64,000 nt of DNA from Nanobdellati archaeon (GTDB lineage Archaea; Nanobdellota; Nanobdellia; UBA10117). A model generated the notes under the pieces. The model had not been told where the DNA came from. It did no database searches and worked only from the letters and a program-made list of their open reading frames with translations. Numbering within the stretch: the first letter of the stretch is position 1; each line of letters begins with the position of its first letter. The translations under genes and the position numbers were made by a program. Below are positions 42,254-47,231 of the stretch, one piece after another. Location: the NCBI GenBank assembly GCA_016182015.1, contig JACOYC010000009.1, positions 6,953 to 70,952 on the forward strand, written 5' to 3'.

Positions 42254-45202
42254 ATGCCAATCGACTTCCGAAAGACCCAATCTGAACAAAGTTCAGATGG
42301 GCCCAGAAAAATCCTAGATTTTTCTAAGGTAGAAAAAAAGTGGCAGCAGGCCTGGGAAGATAAAAAAATCTTCCGCGCAAAGGAAAGTAGCAAGAAAAAG
42401 AAATTTTACAATTTAGAAATGTTCCCCTACCCGTCTGCAACCTTCCTGCACATGGGCCACGTTCGCAACTTCACAATCGGCGACGTCATAGCAAGATTCA
42501 AACGAATGCAGGGCTTCAACGTGCTTTACCCATTCGGCTATGACTCATTCGGCTTGCCAGCGGAGAACGCAGCAAAGAAGGCCGGCATCCACCCAAAAAA
42601 ATACACTGAAGATGCAATTAAAAAAATTACTGAATATTTGAAGGCATTGGGAAACAGTTATGATTGGTCCCGTGTTATTGCAACGCACGAGCCAGAATAT
42701 TACAAATGGAACCAGTGGTTCTTCCTGAAATTTTTGGAGCGCGGCCTGGTTTACAGAAAAAAGGCGCCGGTGAACTGGTGCTCGGAGTGCAAGTCAACTT
42801 TAGCAAATGAGGAAGTGGTTAGTGGTTGCTGCTGGCGCCACGAAGAAACTCAGGTGGAACAGAAAGAGCTGGAGCAGTGGTTCCTCAAAACGACTGCGTA
42901 CGCAGACGAACTGCTGAAAGATTTAGACAAGCTGAACTGGTCGAACAGAATAAAAAACTTGCAGAGGAATTGGATTGGGAAGTCGCAAGGCGTTCTGATT
43001 GATTTCAAAATCAAGGGCAGCAAAAATACGTTGCAAGTTTTCACAACGAGGCCAGATACAATCTTTGGAGTCACCTTTGTTACGGTTTCGCCAAAACACA
43101 AATTAATTTCTGAATTGGCAAAAGAAAATAAGTCCGAACTAGAAAAATTAAGAACAAAAGTGCAAAACGAAGAAGAAAAGGACAAAGAGGGTGTCTTCAC
43201 CGGCAGCTACGCGATAAATCCATTCACGAACGAAGAAGTTCCGGTTTACGCAGCAAACTTTGTTGTTGCCGAATACGGCACTGGCGCTGTGATGGCGGTG
43301 CCAGCCCACGACAAAAGGGATTTTGAGTTCGCGAAGAAATATAATTTGAAAATTAAACCAGTTGTATTAAAAAAAGAAGATAAAAGTTATAGTTTTGTAA
43401 TGGGCATTGGCGAAAGCGACATCAAGCGTATCGGCGCAGAAATTATTGAGAAGACGAAATCTGGATTCTTTAAGATAAAAATTCCGTTCGATAAACTTGA
43501 GCCGTACAAAGAATTCATTAGAAAAAGTATGAAATCGGGTTTTTGGAATGAATTTAGCACCAATACGGGATTTTATTTTATTTTCAAACATAAGGATGAC
43601 AAATTAGAAGAAATGGAATTAAATGAAAAAACAAATGATTTGATAGATAAATATGGCATGACATTTAATAATGAAACGCCAAAAGTGCATCCTGAAAATG
43701 TTTATGGCTGGCTTGCAGAAAATGATTTTTACAAGGAGCTACTAATTCATACTAGCGAAGGCGTCCTTGTAAATTCCGGCCAGTTCAACGGCCTGCAAAG
43801 CAAAGATGCAGCCAAAGCGATTTCTGATTTTGCGGAGAAAAATAAATTCGGAAAAAGAATTACAAACTACAAACTCCGTGACTGGCTCTTCTCCCGCCAG
43901 CGTTATTGGGGCACGCCAATCCCAATTATCTACTGCGGCAAATGCGGCGCGGTGCCAGTGTCAGAAAAAGAGCTGCCGGTCCTGCTGCCGGAGAAAGTTG
44001 ATTTCAAAACAGCTGGCAATCCAATCGCATCTGCAAAAGATTGGACAGAAACAAAATGCCCGAAGTGCAAATCTCCTGCGAGGAGGGAGACAGACACGAT
44101 GGGTGGCTTTGTCGATTCATCGTGGTACTTCCTGCGCTACTGCTCGCCACAGGAAAACAAAGCGCCATTCGATAAAAAAGCGGTGGAGTACTGGATGCCG
44201 GTCAACCAATACGTCGGCGGGATCGAACACACGGTCGGCCATCTCATCTACTCGCGCTTCTGGACAAAAGTCCTAAGAGATATGAAAATGCTGAACTTTG
44301 ACGAGCCGTTCACCTCGCTATTCAATCAGGGAATAGTTTACAAGGACGGACACAAAATGTCAAAGTCATTCGGAAATGTTGTCTACCAAACAGATATCTC
44401 GAAAAAATATGGAATTGACACCGCACGCGTTTTCCTGATGTCAGTCGCCGCGCCCGAGTCTGACATGGAGTGGTCTGATTCTGGCGTCGAAGGTTCATTC
44501 CGCCTGCTGCAAAAGATTTCAAAGATTGCAGAATTAAAATTTAAAAAACTAGATGCAAAAGACGAACACAAAAGAAATATTTTAATAAAAAATTATACTC
44601 TGCTTTTAGAAACCTTCAGGTTTAATCTGGCAATAATTGAGCTGGCAAGGTATGCAGATTACCTTGCAGAAAATCCAACAAGGGAAGGATATGAAACTCT
44701 GTTAACTTTGCTCTCGCCGTTTGCCCCACACATCGCAGAGGAGCTGTGGCATAAGATTGGCAACACCCAAGTCGAGCTTCGCTCGGCTGGGCCCAGAAAC
44801 CAGAGAAAATTCCAAAAGAATTTTCTTGGCCAAGAAAATCGTCAGATGATTTTCTCTGGAAGCGAGGCTTTTTCTCGGGAGAGTTTTGTTTCTGTTGAAC
44901 AATGGCCAGCCGTAAACGAAAAAGCAATCCGGCCAGATATAGAACAGCAAGAGCAAATTTTGGAAAAAACAATCGAAGATGTCCGGCGCATAATTAAAAT
45001 TGTTAACGTTGCGCCAAAAAAAATATATTTATACACCATTCCAAAAGAACTTGATATATACAAATCACTGAAAGAAACTTTGCAGAAAGAATTTTCTGCT
45101 GAAGTCGAAGTCTGGGCAAACAACAACGTCAGGAAGTATGACCCAGAGCACAAGGCAGAGAAAGCGAAGCCGGGCAAGCCGGGGATTTATATCGGAGCTT
45201 AA
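42254..45202 (+). CDS. leuS: leucyl-tRNA synthetase, bacterial-type architecture, with two lineage-specific insertions
   Basis: The ORF track starts at 41993, but that extension is antisense to tRNA-Arg. The ATG at 42254 gives MPIDFRKTQ...KVEKKWQQAWEDKKIF. The class I motifs are present: FPYPSATFLHMGHVRNF (HIGH-type) and HKMSKSFGN (KMSKS), plus AVPAHDKRDFEFAKKY. Confidence 0.9.
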   Translation: MPIDFRKTQSEQSSDGPRKILDFSKVEKKWQQAWEDKKIFRAKESSKKKKFYNLEMFPYPSATFLHMGHVRNFTIGDVIARFKRMQGFNVLYPFGYDSFGLPAENAAKKAGIHPKKYTEDAIKKITEYLKALGNSYDWSRVIATHEPEYYKWNQWFFLKFLERGLVYRKKAPVNWCSECKSTLANEEVVSGCCWRHEETQVEQKELEQWFLKTTAYADELLKDLDKLNWSNRIKNLQRNWIGKSQGVLIDFKIKGSKNTLQVFTTRPDTIFGVTFVTVSPKHKLISELAKENKSELEKLRTKVQNEEEKDKEGVFTGSYAINPFTNEEVPVYAANFVVAEYGTGAVMAVPAHDKRDFEFAKKYNLKIKPVVLKKEDKSYSFVMGIGESDIKRIGAEIIEKTKSGFFKIKIPFDKLEPYKEFIRKSMKSGFWNEFSTNTGFYFIFKHKDDKLEEMELNEKTNDLIDKYGMTFNNETPKVHPENVYGWLAENDFYKELLIHTSEGVLVNSGQFNGLQSKDAAKAISDFAEKNKFGKRITNYKLRDWLFSRQRYWGTPIPIIYCGKCGAVPVSEKELPVLLPEKVDFKTAGNPIASAKDWTETKCPKCKSPARRETDTMGGFVDSSWYFLRYCSPQENKAPFDKKAVEYWMPVNQYVGGIEHTVGHLIYSRFWTKVLRDMKMLNFDEPFTSLFNQGIVYKDGHKMSKSFGNVVYQTDISKKYGIDTARVFLMSVAAPESDMEWSDSGVEGSFRLLQKISKIAELKFKKLDAKDEHKRNILIKNYTLLLETFRFNLAIIELARYADYLAENPTREGYETLLTLLSPFAPHIAEELWHKIGNTQVELRSAGPRNQRKFQKNFLGQENRQMIFSGSEAFSRESFVSVEQWPAVNEKAIRPDIEQQEQILEKTIEDVRRIIKIVNVAPKKIYLYTIPKELDIYKSLKETLQKEFSAEVEVWANNNVRKYDPEHKAEKAKPGKPGIYIGA
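44798..44860 (+). repeat. structured palindromic module inside leuS, homologous to part of the tRNA-His T-arm intron (46992-47050)
   Basis: aaccagagaaaa-[hairpin]-ttttcttggccaag-[hairpin]-ctctgga. The flanks are identical in both copies. The two internal hairpins differ in sequence but both still pair. Confidence 0.6.
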
Positions 45203-45666
45203 TCCTCTGGGAAAGAATGTAATATCTCTCCTATTGACTTCTTGCCGGCCTTTACCATCTTCTCCATCCGCTGGCCAACATCAGCTAAAGCTTCCTTGAT
45301 TGCGGGGTTTTCCGCAACTTTCGGGCCGGTTCCAAAACCGGTCGCGTTTGGGTCGATTAATAACTTAGGTAAAAGCAAACTCACTTTGCCTTTTGCAAGT
45401 TCTTCCTCATTAATAAAAAATGGGTAGAGCCTGCAAATCAGCGGCCGCTTTTCATAAATACCGCACTTTTTATCTGCGGTCAGATGCTGGCAGGAGCCGT
45501 CCTCTTTTAATTTCCAGCCGAATTTTTCAACGCTGAATTTTTCCAATGTTTCTTTTGTAAAAAAGCAGCACTTGCCGCACATCGTGCACGCGAATCTTGT
45601 GTCTGGCACGATCTGCCGCAGGCCTGGCTTGGTCTTGCTGGCCTGCTCAACAAGTTGCTCGTTCAT
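45199..45666 (-). CDS. YkgJ/UPF0153-type zinc/iron-chelating CxxCxxCC protein
   Basis: 155 aa with the CTMCGKCCFF motif and further Cys residues (CQHL, CGIYEKRPLICRLYP). Confidence 0.6.
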   Translation of the reverse strand: MNEQLVEQASKTKPGLRQIVPDTRFACTMCGKCCFFTKETLEKFSVEKFGWKLKEDGSCQHLTADKKCGIYEKRPLICRLYPFFINEEELAKGKVSLLLPKLLIDPNATGFGTGPKVAENPAIKEALADVGQRMEKMVKAGKKSIGEILHSFPED

Positions 45667-46871: not shown

Positions 46872-46895
46872 CCATCATACTATAAAAAGTTAAGG

Positions 46896-47231
46896 GGCCG
46901 CCGCCGAGATTTCCTTGCGATGCCCACACCTTTGTGCGATTGAAAATCGCACGCGTCTCTTTTGGGGTGGGGCGGGAGACCTTTTCTCCGCAACCAGAGA
47001 AAAATCCTTCGGGATTTTTCTTGGCCAAGCCGAATTTCATTCGGCTCTGGAGAGAAAAGGGCTTCGCAATCGGACTCGGGCCTAGAGCTTTCTGATACCT
47101 TACAAAATCGTTAAGGCGCTGAGCGCAGCGAATGCGCCTCGCCTTCTTTGGCGGTTTCGTAGAGCACCTTTCTTCGCGAAGAAAGGGGCTGTACCCACAG
47201 GCTCCAATCATACCACTAGACCACGGCGGCC
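46896..47231 (-). tRNA. tRNA-His(GUG) with encoded G-1, interrupted by long introns (anticodon loop, possibly variable region, and T-arm)
   Basis: The minus strand reads G(-1)-GCCGCCG-TG-GTCT-AGTGGTA-TGAT-T-GGAGC-CTGTGG[~104 nt]A-GCTCT-AGGC-CCGAG-T...[~165 nt]...-CTCGG-CGGCGGC-C(73). G-1 lies opposite C73, as expected for tRNA-His. The T-loop/intron junction is not resolvable by eye (TCCGA..AT). The gene sits 25 nt upstream of the hisS start. Confidence 0.55.

Follow-up and report, generated by a model that had tools for sequence, protein, structure and literature searches.

The window, a 64,000-nucleotide stretch of a contig from a Nanobdellati archaeon, contains leuS (42254–45202, + strand, in the ORF list) and two intron-bearing tRNA genes, tRNA-Arg(TCT) (41978–42215, − strand) and, near hisS, tRNA-His(GTG) (46896–47231, − strand). 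The leuS gene encodes a bacterial-type LeuRS of 982 aa; a public entry labelled 'DPANN group archaeon' has the same LeuRS, at 100% identity. The gene carries two inserts, and the ORF minus both inserts, 926 aa, is colinear with orthologs. Inserts, their hairpins, and module copies are listed below without strand.

The larger insert is an in-frame composite of 114 nt (44766–44879; LeuRS residues 838–876). Its borders are exact, as defined by the ortholog empty site AAC A/AG AGT (slash, insertion point) in L002, L003, and L004. An earlier note on this DNA had described an extra in-frame segment of this length; the segment stands, but it lies one base farther to the right, and the orthologs have at this site a single Lys codon, not the roughly ten residues that the note had supposed. 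Among aligned LeuRS orthologs, the segment is present in P0003 alone. Target-site duplication is absent at the insert (AACA/.../AGAG vs. AACAAGAG at the empty site). In MFE folds, the composite begins with hairpin X (44766–44791; CCCA-A-GTCGAGC-TTC-GCTCGGC-TGGG), an architecture that recurs, with other paired bases, in the N-terminal leuS insert, in L059, and in L090. The next segment, CCCAGAAA (44792–44799), is the 5' strand of an outer stem that, in the MFE fold of the insert, pairs with 44871–44879 (TTTCT[C]GGG) and encloses a nested 60-nt core module (44800–44859); the composite closes with a 3' tail (44860–44879) made up of AAGCGAGGCTT and the outer-stem 3' strand, TTTCTCGGG. The core module is a double hairpin, with layout CCAGAG-AAAATTC/GAATTTT-CTTGGCCAAG-AAAATC/GATTTTC-CTCTGG, and reaches 80.7 bits (+ strand) and 76.6 bits (− strand) with covariance model R1 (E about 1e-17). 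An intergenic homolog of the composite is present in L090.

The smaller insert, 54 nt in length and likewise in-frame (42276–42329; residues 8–25), is a diverged double-hairpin element with layout CCCAA-hairpin-TGGG followed by CCCAGAAAAATC-CTA-GATTTTTCTAAGG (37.6 bits with model R1; E 9e-7). It is missing from all aligned LeuRS orthologs, its deletion in silico restores MPIDFRKIEKKWQ, and it, too, has no target-site duplication. The AlphaFold model of LeuRS has a mean pLDDT of 84.7, with values below 50 at residues 1–18, overlapping the 54-nt insert, and at residues 848–874, overlapping the 114-nt insert and corresponding to the linker that precedes the predicted C-terminal domain. Both inserts are modelled as disordered. 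Peptides expected if the inserts are translated include NFLGQENR and QMIFSGSEAFSR; junction peptides expected if the inserts are removed are IGNK/SFVSVEQWPAVNEK.

Both tRNA genes are missed by ARAGORN and Rfam in unspliced form. Only after splicing by hand does ARAGORN recognize tRNA-Arg(tct) and tRNA-His(gtg), with restored cloverleafs, in agreement with the assignments made in the earlier note. The tRNA-Arg exons, defined by relatives with other intron sets, are 42215–42196, 42174–42156, 42052–42032, and 41992–41978, separated by three introns at 42195–42175 (D-loop), 42155–42053 (position 37/38), and 42031–41993 (T-loop). The tRNA-His exons are 47231–47195, 47089–47069, and 46909–46896, separated by two introns at 47194–47090 (position 37/38) and 47068–46910 (T-loop, position 59/60). 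By hand analysis, tRNA-Arg intron 1 fits an H(4 bp)-B(3)-h' arrangement in which the cut follows the second base of the bulge; the tRNA-His T-loop intron has a relaxed motif, in which the h' helices covary between the window and L003. Homologous introns of ~100 nt occur at the D-loop, 37/38, and 59/60 positions across different genes and genomes. The tRNA-Arg 37/38 intron contains a P1 hairpin (42124–42146) and a P2 hairpin (42077–42095, − strand; GTGCGATC-GAA-GATCGCAC on the + strand), and the tRNA-His T-loop intron contains a matching P2 hairpin (46934–46952, − strand; GTGCGATT-GAA-AATCGCAC on the + strand). The recurrence of this hairpin in both introns, with a C-G pair replaced by U-A, is as had been reported: TTGTGCGATCGAAGATCGCAC (42075–42095) and TTGTGCGATTGAAAATCGCAC (46932–46952) are the sole two matches in the window, vs. 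0.01 expected by chance. We conclude that this hairpin is the P2 hairpin of the ~100-nt tRNA-intron family and is a matter separate from the double-hairpin module.

The module itself is present in the tRNA-His gene as a 57-nt copy (46994–47050) in the P1 hairpin loop of the T-loop intron (58.6 bits with model R1; E about 1e-11), which confirms that leuS and the tRNA-His intron have a module in common. L003 matches the window almost exactly in the tRNA-His exons and intron 1, and its orthologous T-loop intron is without the module, reading CCCTTTTCTTTTGAAAAAGAAAAGG where the window reads CCCTTTTCTCT, module, TTGCGGAGAAAAGG. Because the L003 intron is without it, the module looks like a later arrival in the P1 hairpin loop. 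On this comparison of sequences, the module is a passenger within the intron and not itself an intron; the earlier suggestion of an intron-derived element fits poorly with the L003 intron and with copies that, as described below, are mostly intergenic.

The leuS core module and the tRNA-His intron segment are members of one family, CCAGAG-hairpin-CTTGGCCAAG-hairpin-CTCTGG. The family unit consists of two neighbouring hairpins with two-fold symmetry (CCA(G)AG-stem-loop-stem-CTTGG followed by CCAAG-stem-loop-stem-CT(C)TGG), is 50–63 nt long, most commonly 60 nt, and in most copies has terminal inverted repeats CCAGAGAAAA ... TTTTCTCTGG. Since the module is a near-palindrome, with both strands matching model R1 equally well, the distinction between sense and antisense is meaningless for it. 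We found 64 distinct copies, all in DPANN genomes (Woese-, Pace-, and Nanoarchaeota) or unclassified metagenomes. A search of 596 Gb of genomes with the pattern CCAGAG-N-CTTGGCCAAG-N-CTCTGG gave 23 matching stretches, 15 of them from DPANN MAGs, several of which have 3–5 copies each; in metagenomes there were 74 pattern matches in 69 stretches, 58 with both hairpins and 16 without. The pattern demanded exact junction motifs, so that copies having lost those motifs are invisible to the scan.

In the copies, the junction motifs are conserved and the stem tips are free to vary yet always paired. Each of the 19 copies from DPANN or the window has both variable segments fully paired, over 5–9 bp each; in the eight non-DPANN pattern matches, these segments pair over 0–3 bp. 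In an alignment of 51 distinct rows, 98% of cells are paired, vs. 37–59% in slid controls, and 22 of 24 pairs have changed on both sides, bearing out the claim that the module hairpins differ in sequence but retain pairing. G·U pairs account for 15 of 966 variable-stem pairs (1.6%). The near-absence of G·U, together with the equal strand scores, is as expected of a complementarity that is strand-symmetric and resides at the DNA level; the scarcity of G·U points to DNA-level palindromy. These results leave next to no probability for the proposal of an ordinary protein insertion in leuS whose likeness to the intron is fortuitous. The segment is in-frame and annotated within LeuRS in the public record, as that proposal would have it, but one architecture is common to all 64 distinct copies, the covariance-model E values for the leuS and intron copies are those given above, the segment is missing in all aligned orthologs but one, and neither the hairpin pattern nor the module pattern is matched in shuffled sequences. 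An ordinary insertion with chance similarity is refuted by the multi-copy family, the pairing, and the covariance-model scores.

Most copies are intergenic, and many lie between genes or just upstream of start codons. Others lie in the apical loop of an already existing hairpin, for example the P1 hairpin of a tRNA intron, or are nested in another such element, and L046, L027, and L013 contain mosaic arrays. A few copies also occur within protein-coding genes elsewhere: in genes for TruD, CarB, a PMT_2 membrane protein, and eS19, with hosts verified by Pfam, the copies are in-frame and stop-free. The CarB insert is exactly 20 aa (60 nt) and lacks a target-site duplication. The six in-gene insertion events (two in leuS and one each in the TruD, PMT_2, CarB, and eS19 genes), in five genes, are all multiples of three and stop-free in the host frame. 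No frame-breaking in-gene copy was seen in a screen that picked up only copies with an open frame or with long open flanks, and a gene badly disrupted by a copy could for that reason escape detection. This reading-frame pattern favours the option, raised in the earlier note, that the leuS segment is translated as an insertion.

The same note had raised a second option, removal of the leuS segment from the mRNA by the tRNA-splicing machinery. In this view, both leuS inserts would be mRNA introns of the archaeal kind, with cutting by the tRNA-splicing endonuclease and joining by RtcB ligase yielding a LeuRS without the extra 38 + 18 residues. An archaeal mRNA intron of the bulge-helix-bulge (BHB) type occurs in crenarchaeal cbf5. 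The host splices many non-canonical tRNA introns, five of them in the two tRNA genes analyzed here; related modules reside in genuine introns; the leuS insert has a compact multi-hairpin fold whose ends, CCCAAG and CTCGGG, can pair and thereby juxtapose the exon ends; and the insert is conserved in nucleotides far beyond the flanking coding DNA. However, BHB scans of the insert, strict and then relaxed to bulges of 2–4 nt, by a logic that, worked by hand, recovers the correct splice sites of tRNA-Arg intron 1 (validated by ARAGORN), found no motif that excises 44766–44879 or an in-frame equivalent to give the ortholog junction ...IGN(K)SFVSVEQWP. Of the BHB-like candidates, the best (44768–44892, 125 nt) shifts the frame and runs into a stop. 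In addition, the module conserves a pair of single-nucleotide bulges where a BHB motif would have two of 3 nt with 4 bp between them, and spliced introns have no need to be, as all six in-gene insertions are, multiples of three and stop-free. We consider removal of the segments by splicing very improbable.

In L001, the leuS site is filled, by an insert that is 112/114 identical (98%) to that of the window, and the leuS flanks of the insert are only 83.8% identical between the two (P about 5e-7). Both differences between the inserts are C-G to U·G changes within stems. Two relatives as close as L001 carry the empty leuS site. If a neutral, translated insert were simply inherited vertically, the contrast of 98% vs. 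84% would not be predicted, and it is left unexplained. The contrast has a place in an alternative reading, in which the double hairpin is not a selfish mobile repeat but a functional structured RNA or protein-binding nucleic-acid motif under selection, for instance an element that stabilises mRNA, resembles a terminator, or acts in regulation, or a site bound by a conserved dimeric protein, with the leuS and intron copies being exaptations or tolerated by-products. Junction-motif conservation and pairing, taken alone, are equally expected of a selected structured nucleic acid: CCAGAG, CTTGGCCAAG, CTCTGG, and pairing are preserved across order-level DPANN lineages while the tips covary, in copies recovered with a pattern that required the motifs exactly. 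Consistent with selection are also the many copies between genes or just 5' of start codons, the near-invariance of the leuS insert across lineages that have diverged by 16%, with both changes C-G to U·G, and the lack of a mobility gene beside the copies surveyed. Against it, G·U at 1.6% and equal strand scores set the module apart from the typical RNA family; copies turn up in contexts of all kinds, some within other hairpins and some in the coding sequence of unrelated genes; close relatives are polymorphic for presence or absence, with precise borders; and Rfam has no match to the module. On balance, selection for function appears unlikely as the primary explanation.

We favour as probable, with room for doubt, the interpretation that the module is a copy of a small non-autonomous REP/MITE-like palindromic DNA repeat family of DPANN, translated within genes in the manner of the Rickettsia palindromic elements (RPEs). 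By this interpretation, copies would be mobile and would insert at the DNA level; leuS would have received two insertions, the 54-nt element at codon 8 and the 114-nt composite at codon 838, the latter comprising hairpin X and a second hairpin with the 60-nt module in its loop. By analogy with RPEs, both inserts may be transcribed, and translation would then give LeuRS disordered loops at its surface or in a linker; the tRNA-His copy would be harmless because it leaves together with the intron. The reading accords with the earlier proposal of a mobile or selected structured element, or MITE, which gains from the multi-copy, DPANN-restricted, strongly covarying family and from the lineage-specific leuS insertion. 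Several observations count against this interpretation. At loci L005–L096, clustering of ORFs (≤2.5 kb) revealed no transposase or recurrent neighbour gene family beside the copies, and their neighbourhoods (2.5 kb) yielded no autonomous parent element with the same ends; target-site duplications, unlike in classical MITEs, are absent; and copies within one genome differ from each other in their stems and are therefore unlike a recent burst. The essential leuS gene and a tRNA intron of one organism both bear this ~60-base double-hairpin repeat.

Four known systems invite comparison. The P2 hairpin and the ~100-nt tRNA-Arg and tRNA-His introns fit the first of these, archaeal BHB introns; the 60-nt module and the inserts in leuS differ in having no BHB motif, and the leuS inserts also in being in-frame. 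Transposition of tRNA introns was reportedly described by Fujishima et al. in 2010 for Thermoproteales. Classical MITEs, including the MITEs/PATEs of the archaea Sulfolobus and Haloquadratum, are likewise small, non-coding, multi-copy, flanked by terminal inverted repeats (here CCAGAGAAAA/TTTTCTCTGG), and present or absent among relatives; they differ in having target-site duplications, of which there are none at three defined sites of the DPANN element, and near-identical copies, whereas copies of the DPANN element differ by compensated stem changes. We know of no parent IS with ends matching the element. REP, REPIN, and BIME sequences (PMC3116915, PMC2817692, PMC3733652) resemble the element in several ways: each is a short, imperfect palindrome that has a bulged base and occurs in inverted doublets, and the copies are multiple and chiefly extragenic, form mosaic arrays, tend to lie in or beside other hairpins, and have no target-site duplication. 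REP/REPIN sequences are, in contrast, associated with RAYTs, carry a GTAG or CGTC 5' tag, and have G+C-rich stems in bacterial hosts; the DPANN element ends without either tag, no RAYT or Y1 transposase occurs in the copy neighbourhoods of L005–L096, and its stems are A/T-rich, its hosts archaeal, and some of its copies in-frame within genes. In the last respect it resembles RPEs, an established phenomenon of in-frame palindromic elements within ORFs (Ogata et al., 2000, summarised in review PMC10969869). Both are short, palindromic, multi-copy, without a transposase of their own, and in-frame in unrelated housekeeping ORFs as well as in RNA genes; the DPANN copies are stop-free in conserved ORFs and missing from orthologs, and by analogy they, too, would be translated as extra, tolerated peptide segments. 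RPEs are about 100–150 bp, bacterial (Rickettsia), and of their own consensus families, and the likeness is one of analogy only, with no sequence relationship expected; the DPANN element is a 50–63-nt double hairpin with CCAGAG/CTTGGCCAAG/CTCTGG junctions that is mostly intergenic and nests in the loops of tRNA-intron hairpins.

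The double-hairpin module that the earlier note described as shared between leuS and a tRNA-His intron is confirmed, with copies at 44800-44859 in leuS and at 46994-47050 in the intron. We used the pattern CCAGAG-N(10-28)-CTTGGCCAAG-N(10-28)-CTCTGG, for which we estimate about a dozen chance matches in 596 Gb, to search genomes and metagenomes. The genome scan returned 23 stretches, of which Woese-, Pace- or Nanoarchaeota MAGs contributed 15, and the metagenome scan returned 74 matches on 69 stretches, with both hairpins present in 58 of the 74 matches and absent in 16. In every DPANN or window copy the unconstrained segments pair from their ends inward over 5-9 bp, with loops mostly of 3-4 nt; in the 8 non-DPANN genome matches they pair over just 0-3 bp, and we discarded these matches as chance. 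Distinct modules number 64 in total, are 50-63 nt long (60 nt being the commonest length), and reach 3-5 copies apiece in several DPANN MAGs. No copy was found in viral contigs, and Rfam searches of the window and 15 related loci, at the gathering threshold and at E <= 10, returned nothing relevant, the sole match being 5S rRNA elsewhere.

A covariance model of the module, R1, trained on 12 copies, recovers all copies on both strands with near-equal scores and also detects more diverged copies. In the R1 alignment, which is model-fitted and includes both strands, 98% of cells are paired (37-59% in slid controls), and both-side changes occur in 22 of 24 pairs. Of 966 pairs in the variable stems, only 15 are G·U. 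This scarcity and the symmetry of the strands argue that whatever keeps the segments complementary acts on DNA, or on both strands, and not on a single transcript. A variant at locus L013 substitutes CCGAAG...CTCGG for CCAGAG...CTTGG, a covariation that fits two separate hairpins. On the pairing comparison and the R1 scores we dropped chance similarity as an account of the leuS and intron modules, and on the same comparison and the both-strand scores we dropped the reading of the module as an antisense copy of an intron. The number of distinct modules, their recovery by R1 and their covariation support the idea of a mobile palindrome and extend it to a DPANN-wide family.

Module copies are mostly intergenic, often preceding a start codon by a few tens of bases; some are arrayed with other hairpin units. 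Such arrays occur at L046 1143-1716, L027 4338-4470 and L013 6942-7165 and in the flanks of L026 and L011, and other hairpin units recurring in DPANN arrays include GAAAAATGCGCGAAA... and GCGAGTTTTTGTTAT. Lengths divisible by three are seen in 40 of the 64 modules despite the mostly intergenic setting, which may simply mirror the predominance of hairpins with an 8-bp stem and a 3-nt loop. Copies also lie inside ORFs, with hosts identified by Pfam as TruD (L036), a PMT_2 membrane glycosyltransferase (L082), CarB (L034) and ribosomal protein eS19, in its C-terminal extension (L028); each of these copies spans 60 nt and reads through in the host frame without a stop. In CarB the module adds exactly 20 residues compared with 12 homologs, and deleting its 60 nt leaves colinear sequence with no duplicated target, the empty site being assessed at the protein level only and the best homologs being just ~52% identical. 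A screen for long open flanks lying in different frames found no split genes around modules.

Loci related to the window leuS were retrieved through LeuRS homologs and comprise L001, a JGI metagenome contig, and L002, L003 and L004, from NCBI MAGs. A protein annotated 'leucine--tRNA ligase [DPANN group archaeon]' matches the window LeuRS (42254-45202, plus strand) at 100% identity; where contigs reach far enough, leuS, a CxxCxxCC gene and hisS follow one another in that order in the window and L001-L004, and a tRNA-Arg gene lies immediately upstream of leuS in all five. Among the 30 best homologs, 38 extra residues are found only in the window protein and in P0003, the LeuRS of L001, with a single Lys in the rest; a looser check over the 120 best matches gave the same outcome. 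A protein-database search with the 41-aa insert peptide was uninformative, as no entry had enough words in common with it. The empty site reads ...AAC A|AG AGT... in L003, with deviations of 1-2 bases around the junction in L002 and L004, and in the window and L001 a segment of 114 nt (CCCAAG...CTCGGG) separates A from AG, and the target is not duplicated. The comparison with these empty sites therefore defines the insert as 44766-44879. Between window and L001 the insert is identical at 112 of 114 positions and the flanks (300 nt each side) are 83.8% identical, a flank identity at which two or fewer differences would arise with probability ~5e-7; both differences are C-G to U·G changes inside stems. 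Insert-free L002 and L003 are equally near to the window over the C-terminal 1.2 kb of leuS (85-86%, vs 85% for L001). Given this distribution and identity, either the insert postdates the divergence of these genes or its nucleotide sequence is under exceptionally strong constraint. Judged from the aligned sequences, the segment is a precise and probably recent insertion, and its near-identity in two diverged leuS genes is the remaining puzzle.

The 114-nt composite is nested: hairpin X (44766-44791) is followed by a stem, CCCAGAAA / TTTCT(C)GGG, that carries the module in its loop, and the whole composite has an intergenic homolog at L090. An N-terminal leuS insert of 54 nt (42276-42329) consists of hairpin X' and one module-like hairpin. 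R1 matches this part of leuS (42272-42333; 37.6 bits, E 9e-7), and excising the 54 nt yields MPIDFRKIEKKWQ, matching orthologs such as the LeuRS homolog P0007 (MPIDFAKIEKKW).

The earlier note had allowed that the leuS segment might be removed from the mRNA by the tRNA-splicing machinery. We scanned for the archaeal BHB motif as outer helix, 4-bp helix, 3-nt bulge and inner helix per strand, the cut being placed behind the second base of the bulge; this geometry recovers the tRNA-Arg intron 1 junctions. The strict scan found no such motif at the leuS insert borders, the best BHB-like candidate in leuS excises 125 nt and reads into a stop codon, and a relaxed scan (bulges of 2-4 nt, weak helices allowed) gave no candidate restoring the ortholog leuS junction. 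Removal by splicing is thus not supported, and with no usable motif found by these scans we consider the mRNA-intron reading of the leuS inserts very unlikely. An AlphaFold model of full LeuRS, built on a 42-sequence alignment (mean pLDDT 84.7), contains just four segments at pLDDT <50. One, aa 1-18, coincides in part with the N-terminal insert (aa 8-25); another, aa 848-874, falls within the 114-nt insert (aa 838-876) and is located in the linker preceding the C-terminal domain. Because these insert segments have low pLDDT, the lengths are 3n and the frames are open in five genes, the better-supported account is that the inserts would be translated as tolerated loops. Predicted tryptic peptides are NFLGQENR and QMIFSGSEAFSR for the insert and IGNK / SFVSVEQWPAVNEK for the insert-free junction. 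Elsewhere in the protein, aa ~372-510 (window 43367-43783) form a ~140-aa extra domain within the CP1/editing region, predicted with a confident fold (pLDDT ~90) and common only to a 920-960-aa subset of DPANN LeuRS; other LeuRS relatives match Pfam alpha/beta-hydrolase (PF06821/PF12697, e.g. P0003) or NUDIX (PF00293) families.

ARAGORN and Rfam found no tRNA in the unspliced window, and ARAGORN found none in unspliced DNA of 19 related DPANN loci. We set exon boundaries by comparing homologous genes with different intron sets and spliced the genes by hand, whereupon ARAGORN called tRNA-Arg(UCU) at 41978-42215 (minus strand; three introns; exons 42215-42196, 42174-42156, 42052-42032 and 41992-41978) and tRNA-His(GUG) at 46896-47231 (minus strand; two introns; exons 47231-47195, 47089-47069 and 46909-46896). 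These calls show that the earlier placement of a recurring hairpin in the tRNA-Arg 37/38 intron and the tRNA-His T-loop intron was correct. Since no tRNA was called in the unspliced window or in the 19 loci, tRNA counts for these DPANN lineages are probably underestimated. The spliced tRNA-His T-loop (47069-47075 joined to 46909) reads UCCGAUU, with C at position 55, as also in L003; this position is near-universally U (pseudouridine 55).

The window contains the extended hairpin, TTGTGCGATYGAARATCGCAC, at just two places (42075-42095 and 46932-46952; 0.01 expected by chance); it is the P2 hairpin of a ~100-nt tRNA-intron family with the layout P1 hairpin (CCUUUCUUU / AAAGAAAGG), linker, second purine tract (CCAAAGAAAG) and P2. 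Across the window (42053-42155, 47090-47194 and 46910-47068), L001-L004 and L011 (~790-980), members occupy D-loop, 37/38 and 59/60 positions, and their P2 stems differ by paired changes. P1 is a pyrimidine/purine hairpin whose 3' strand is repeated by the purine tract, a duplication that suggests alternative pairing or a triplex. Modules lie within the P1 loop in the window tRNA-His and in L011 (824-881), and probably also in L015. In L003 the orthologous tRNA-His intron has an intact P1 at the point where the window carries the module, which is therefore a secondary insertion into the window intron. Introns transposed between tRNA positions are known in archaea (Thermoproteales), and the window family fits this precedent. 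A further paper on this subject is PMC4090602.

Other hairpins are present in the window. The minus strand at 52830-52880 (GCGAAGTTGGCCAAGCGGAAC...) looks like a class II (Leu/Ser) tRNA D-arm, has hairpins around it, and may be another disrupted tRNA gene. Two perfect hairpins are intergenic: one at 6308-6326, GCGGCATC-GAA-GATGCCGC, is similar to the intron P2 hairpin, and a double hairpin at 51265-51311 has a weak R1 score (13.3 bits). Compared with shuffles, the window has five times as many perfect hairpins of 8 bp or more.

No recurrent gene that could be a candidate transposase was found near module copies, where only syntenic orthologs clustered. Other orthologous loci are uninformative on module versus flank conservation because all pairs are ~100% identical. 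We regard it as unlikely that the double hairpins are an active mobile DPANN class, free of target-site duplication, inserting and excising precisely, preferring hairpin apices, and returning independently in different lineages to one position in leuS. Movement would be driven by single-stranded-DNA 'peel-and-paste' or by RNA-level reverse splicing; re-homing to one leuS site would explain 98% insert versus 84% flank identity; and in reduced DPANN genomes the reshaping of essential proteins and tRNA introns by such elements would be routine. We assign a similarly low probability to the alternative that the module is a binding site or a structured nucleic acid kept by selection, with which junction motifs that are conserved while stem tips covary freely are compatible.

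DPANN archaea have tiny genomes that are usually considered repeat-poor. A widespread and structurally constrained palindromic repeat, promoter-proximal, nested in tRNA introns and in frame in LeuRS, CarB, TruD and eS19, would be an archaeal counterpart of Rickettsia palindromic elements and bacterial REPINs. The family would supply lineage-specific protein insertions and annotation artefacts, helps account for tRNA-finder failure on these genomes, and cautions that structured inserts in archaeal genes are not always BHB introns; the identical insert in two diverged leuS genes offers a concrete test case for element movement. A full-text literature search, of incomplete coverage and hence weak evidence of novelty, found no such element described in DPANN archaea.

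In having precise borders, a preference for hairpin apices and no target-site duplication, the palindromic family is closer to REP/REPIN or IS200/IS605-type single-strand elements than to DDE-type MITEs, although the tags of REP/REPIN sequences (GTAG/CGTC) are absent from the DPANN module. The mosaic repeat arrays of some DPANN contigs are reminiscent of bacterial BIMEs, and intergenic copies behave like REP/REPIN/BIME repeats (PMC3116915, PMC2817692). Rickettsia palindromic elements insert in frame into many ORFs (PMC10969869), and by analogy the in-gene DPANN copies would be their functional likeness.
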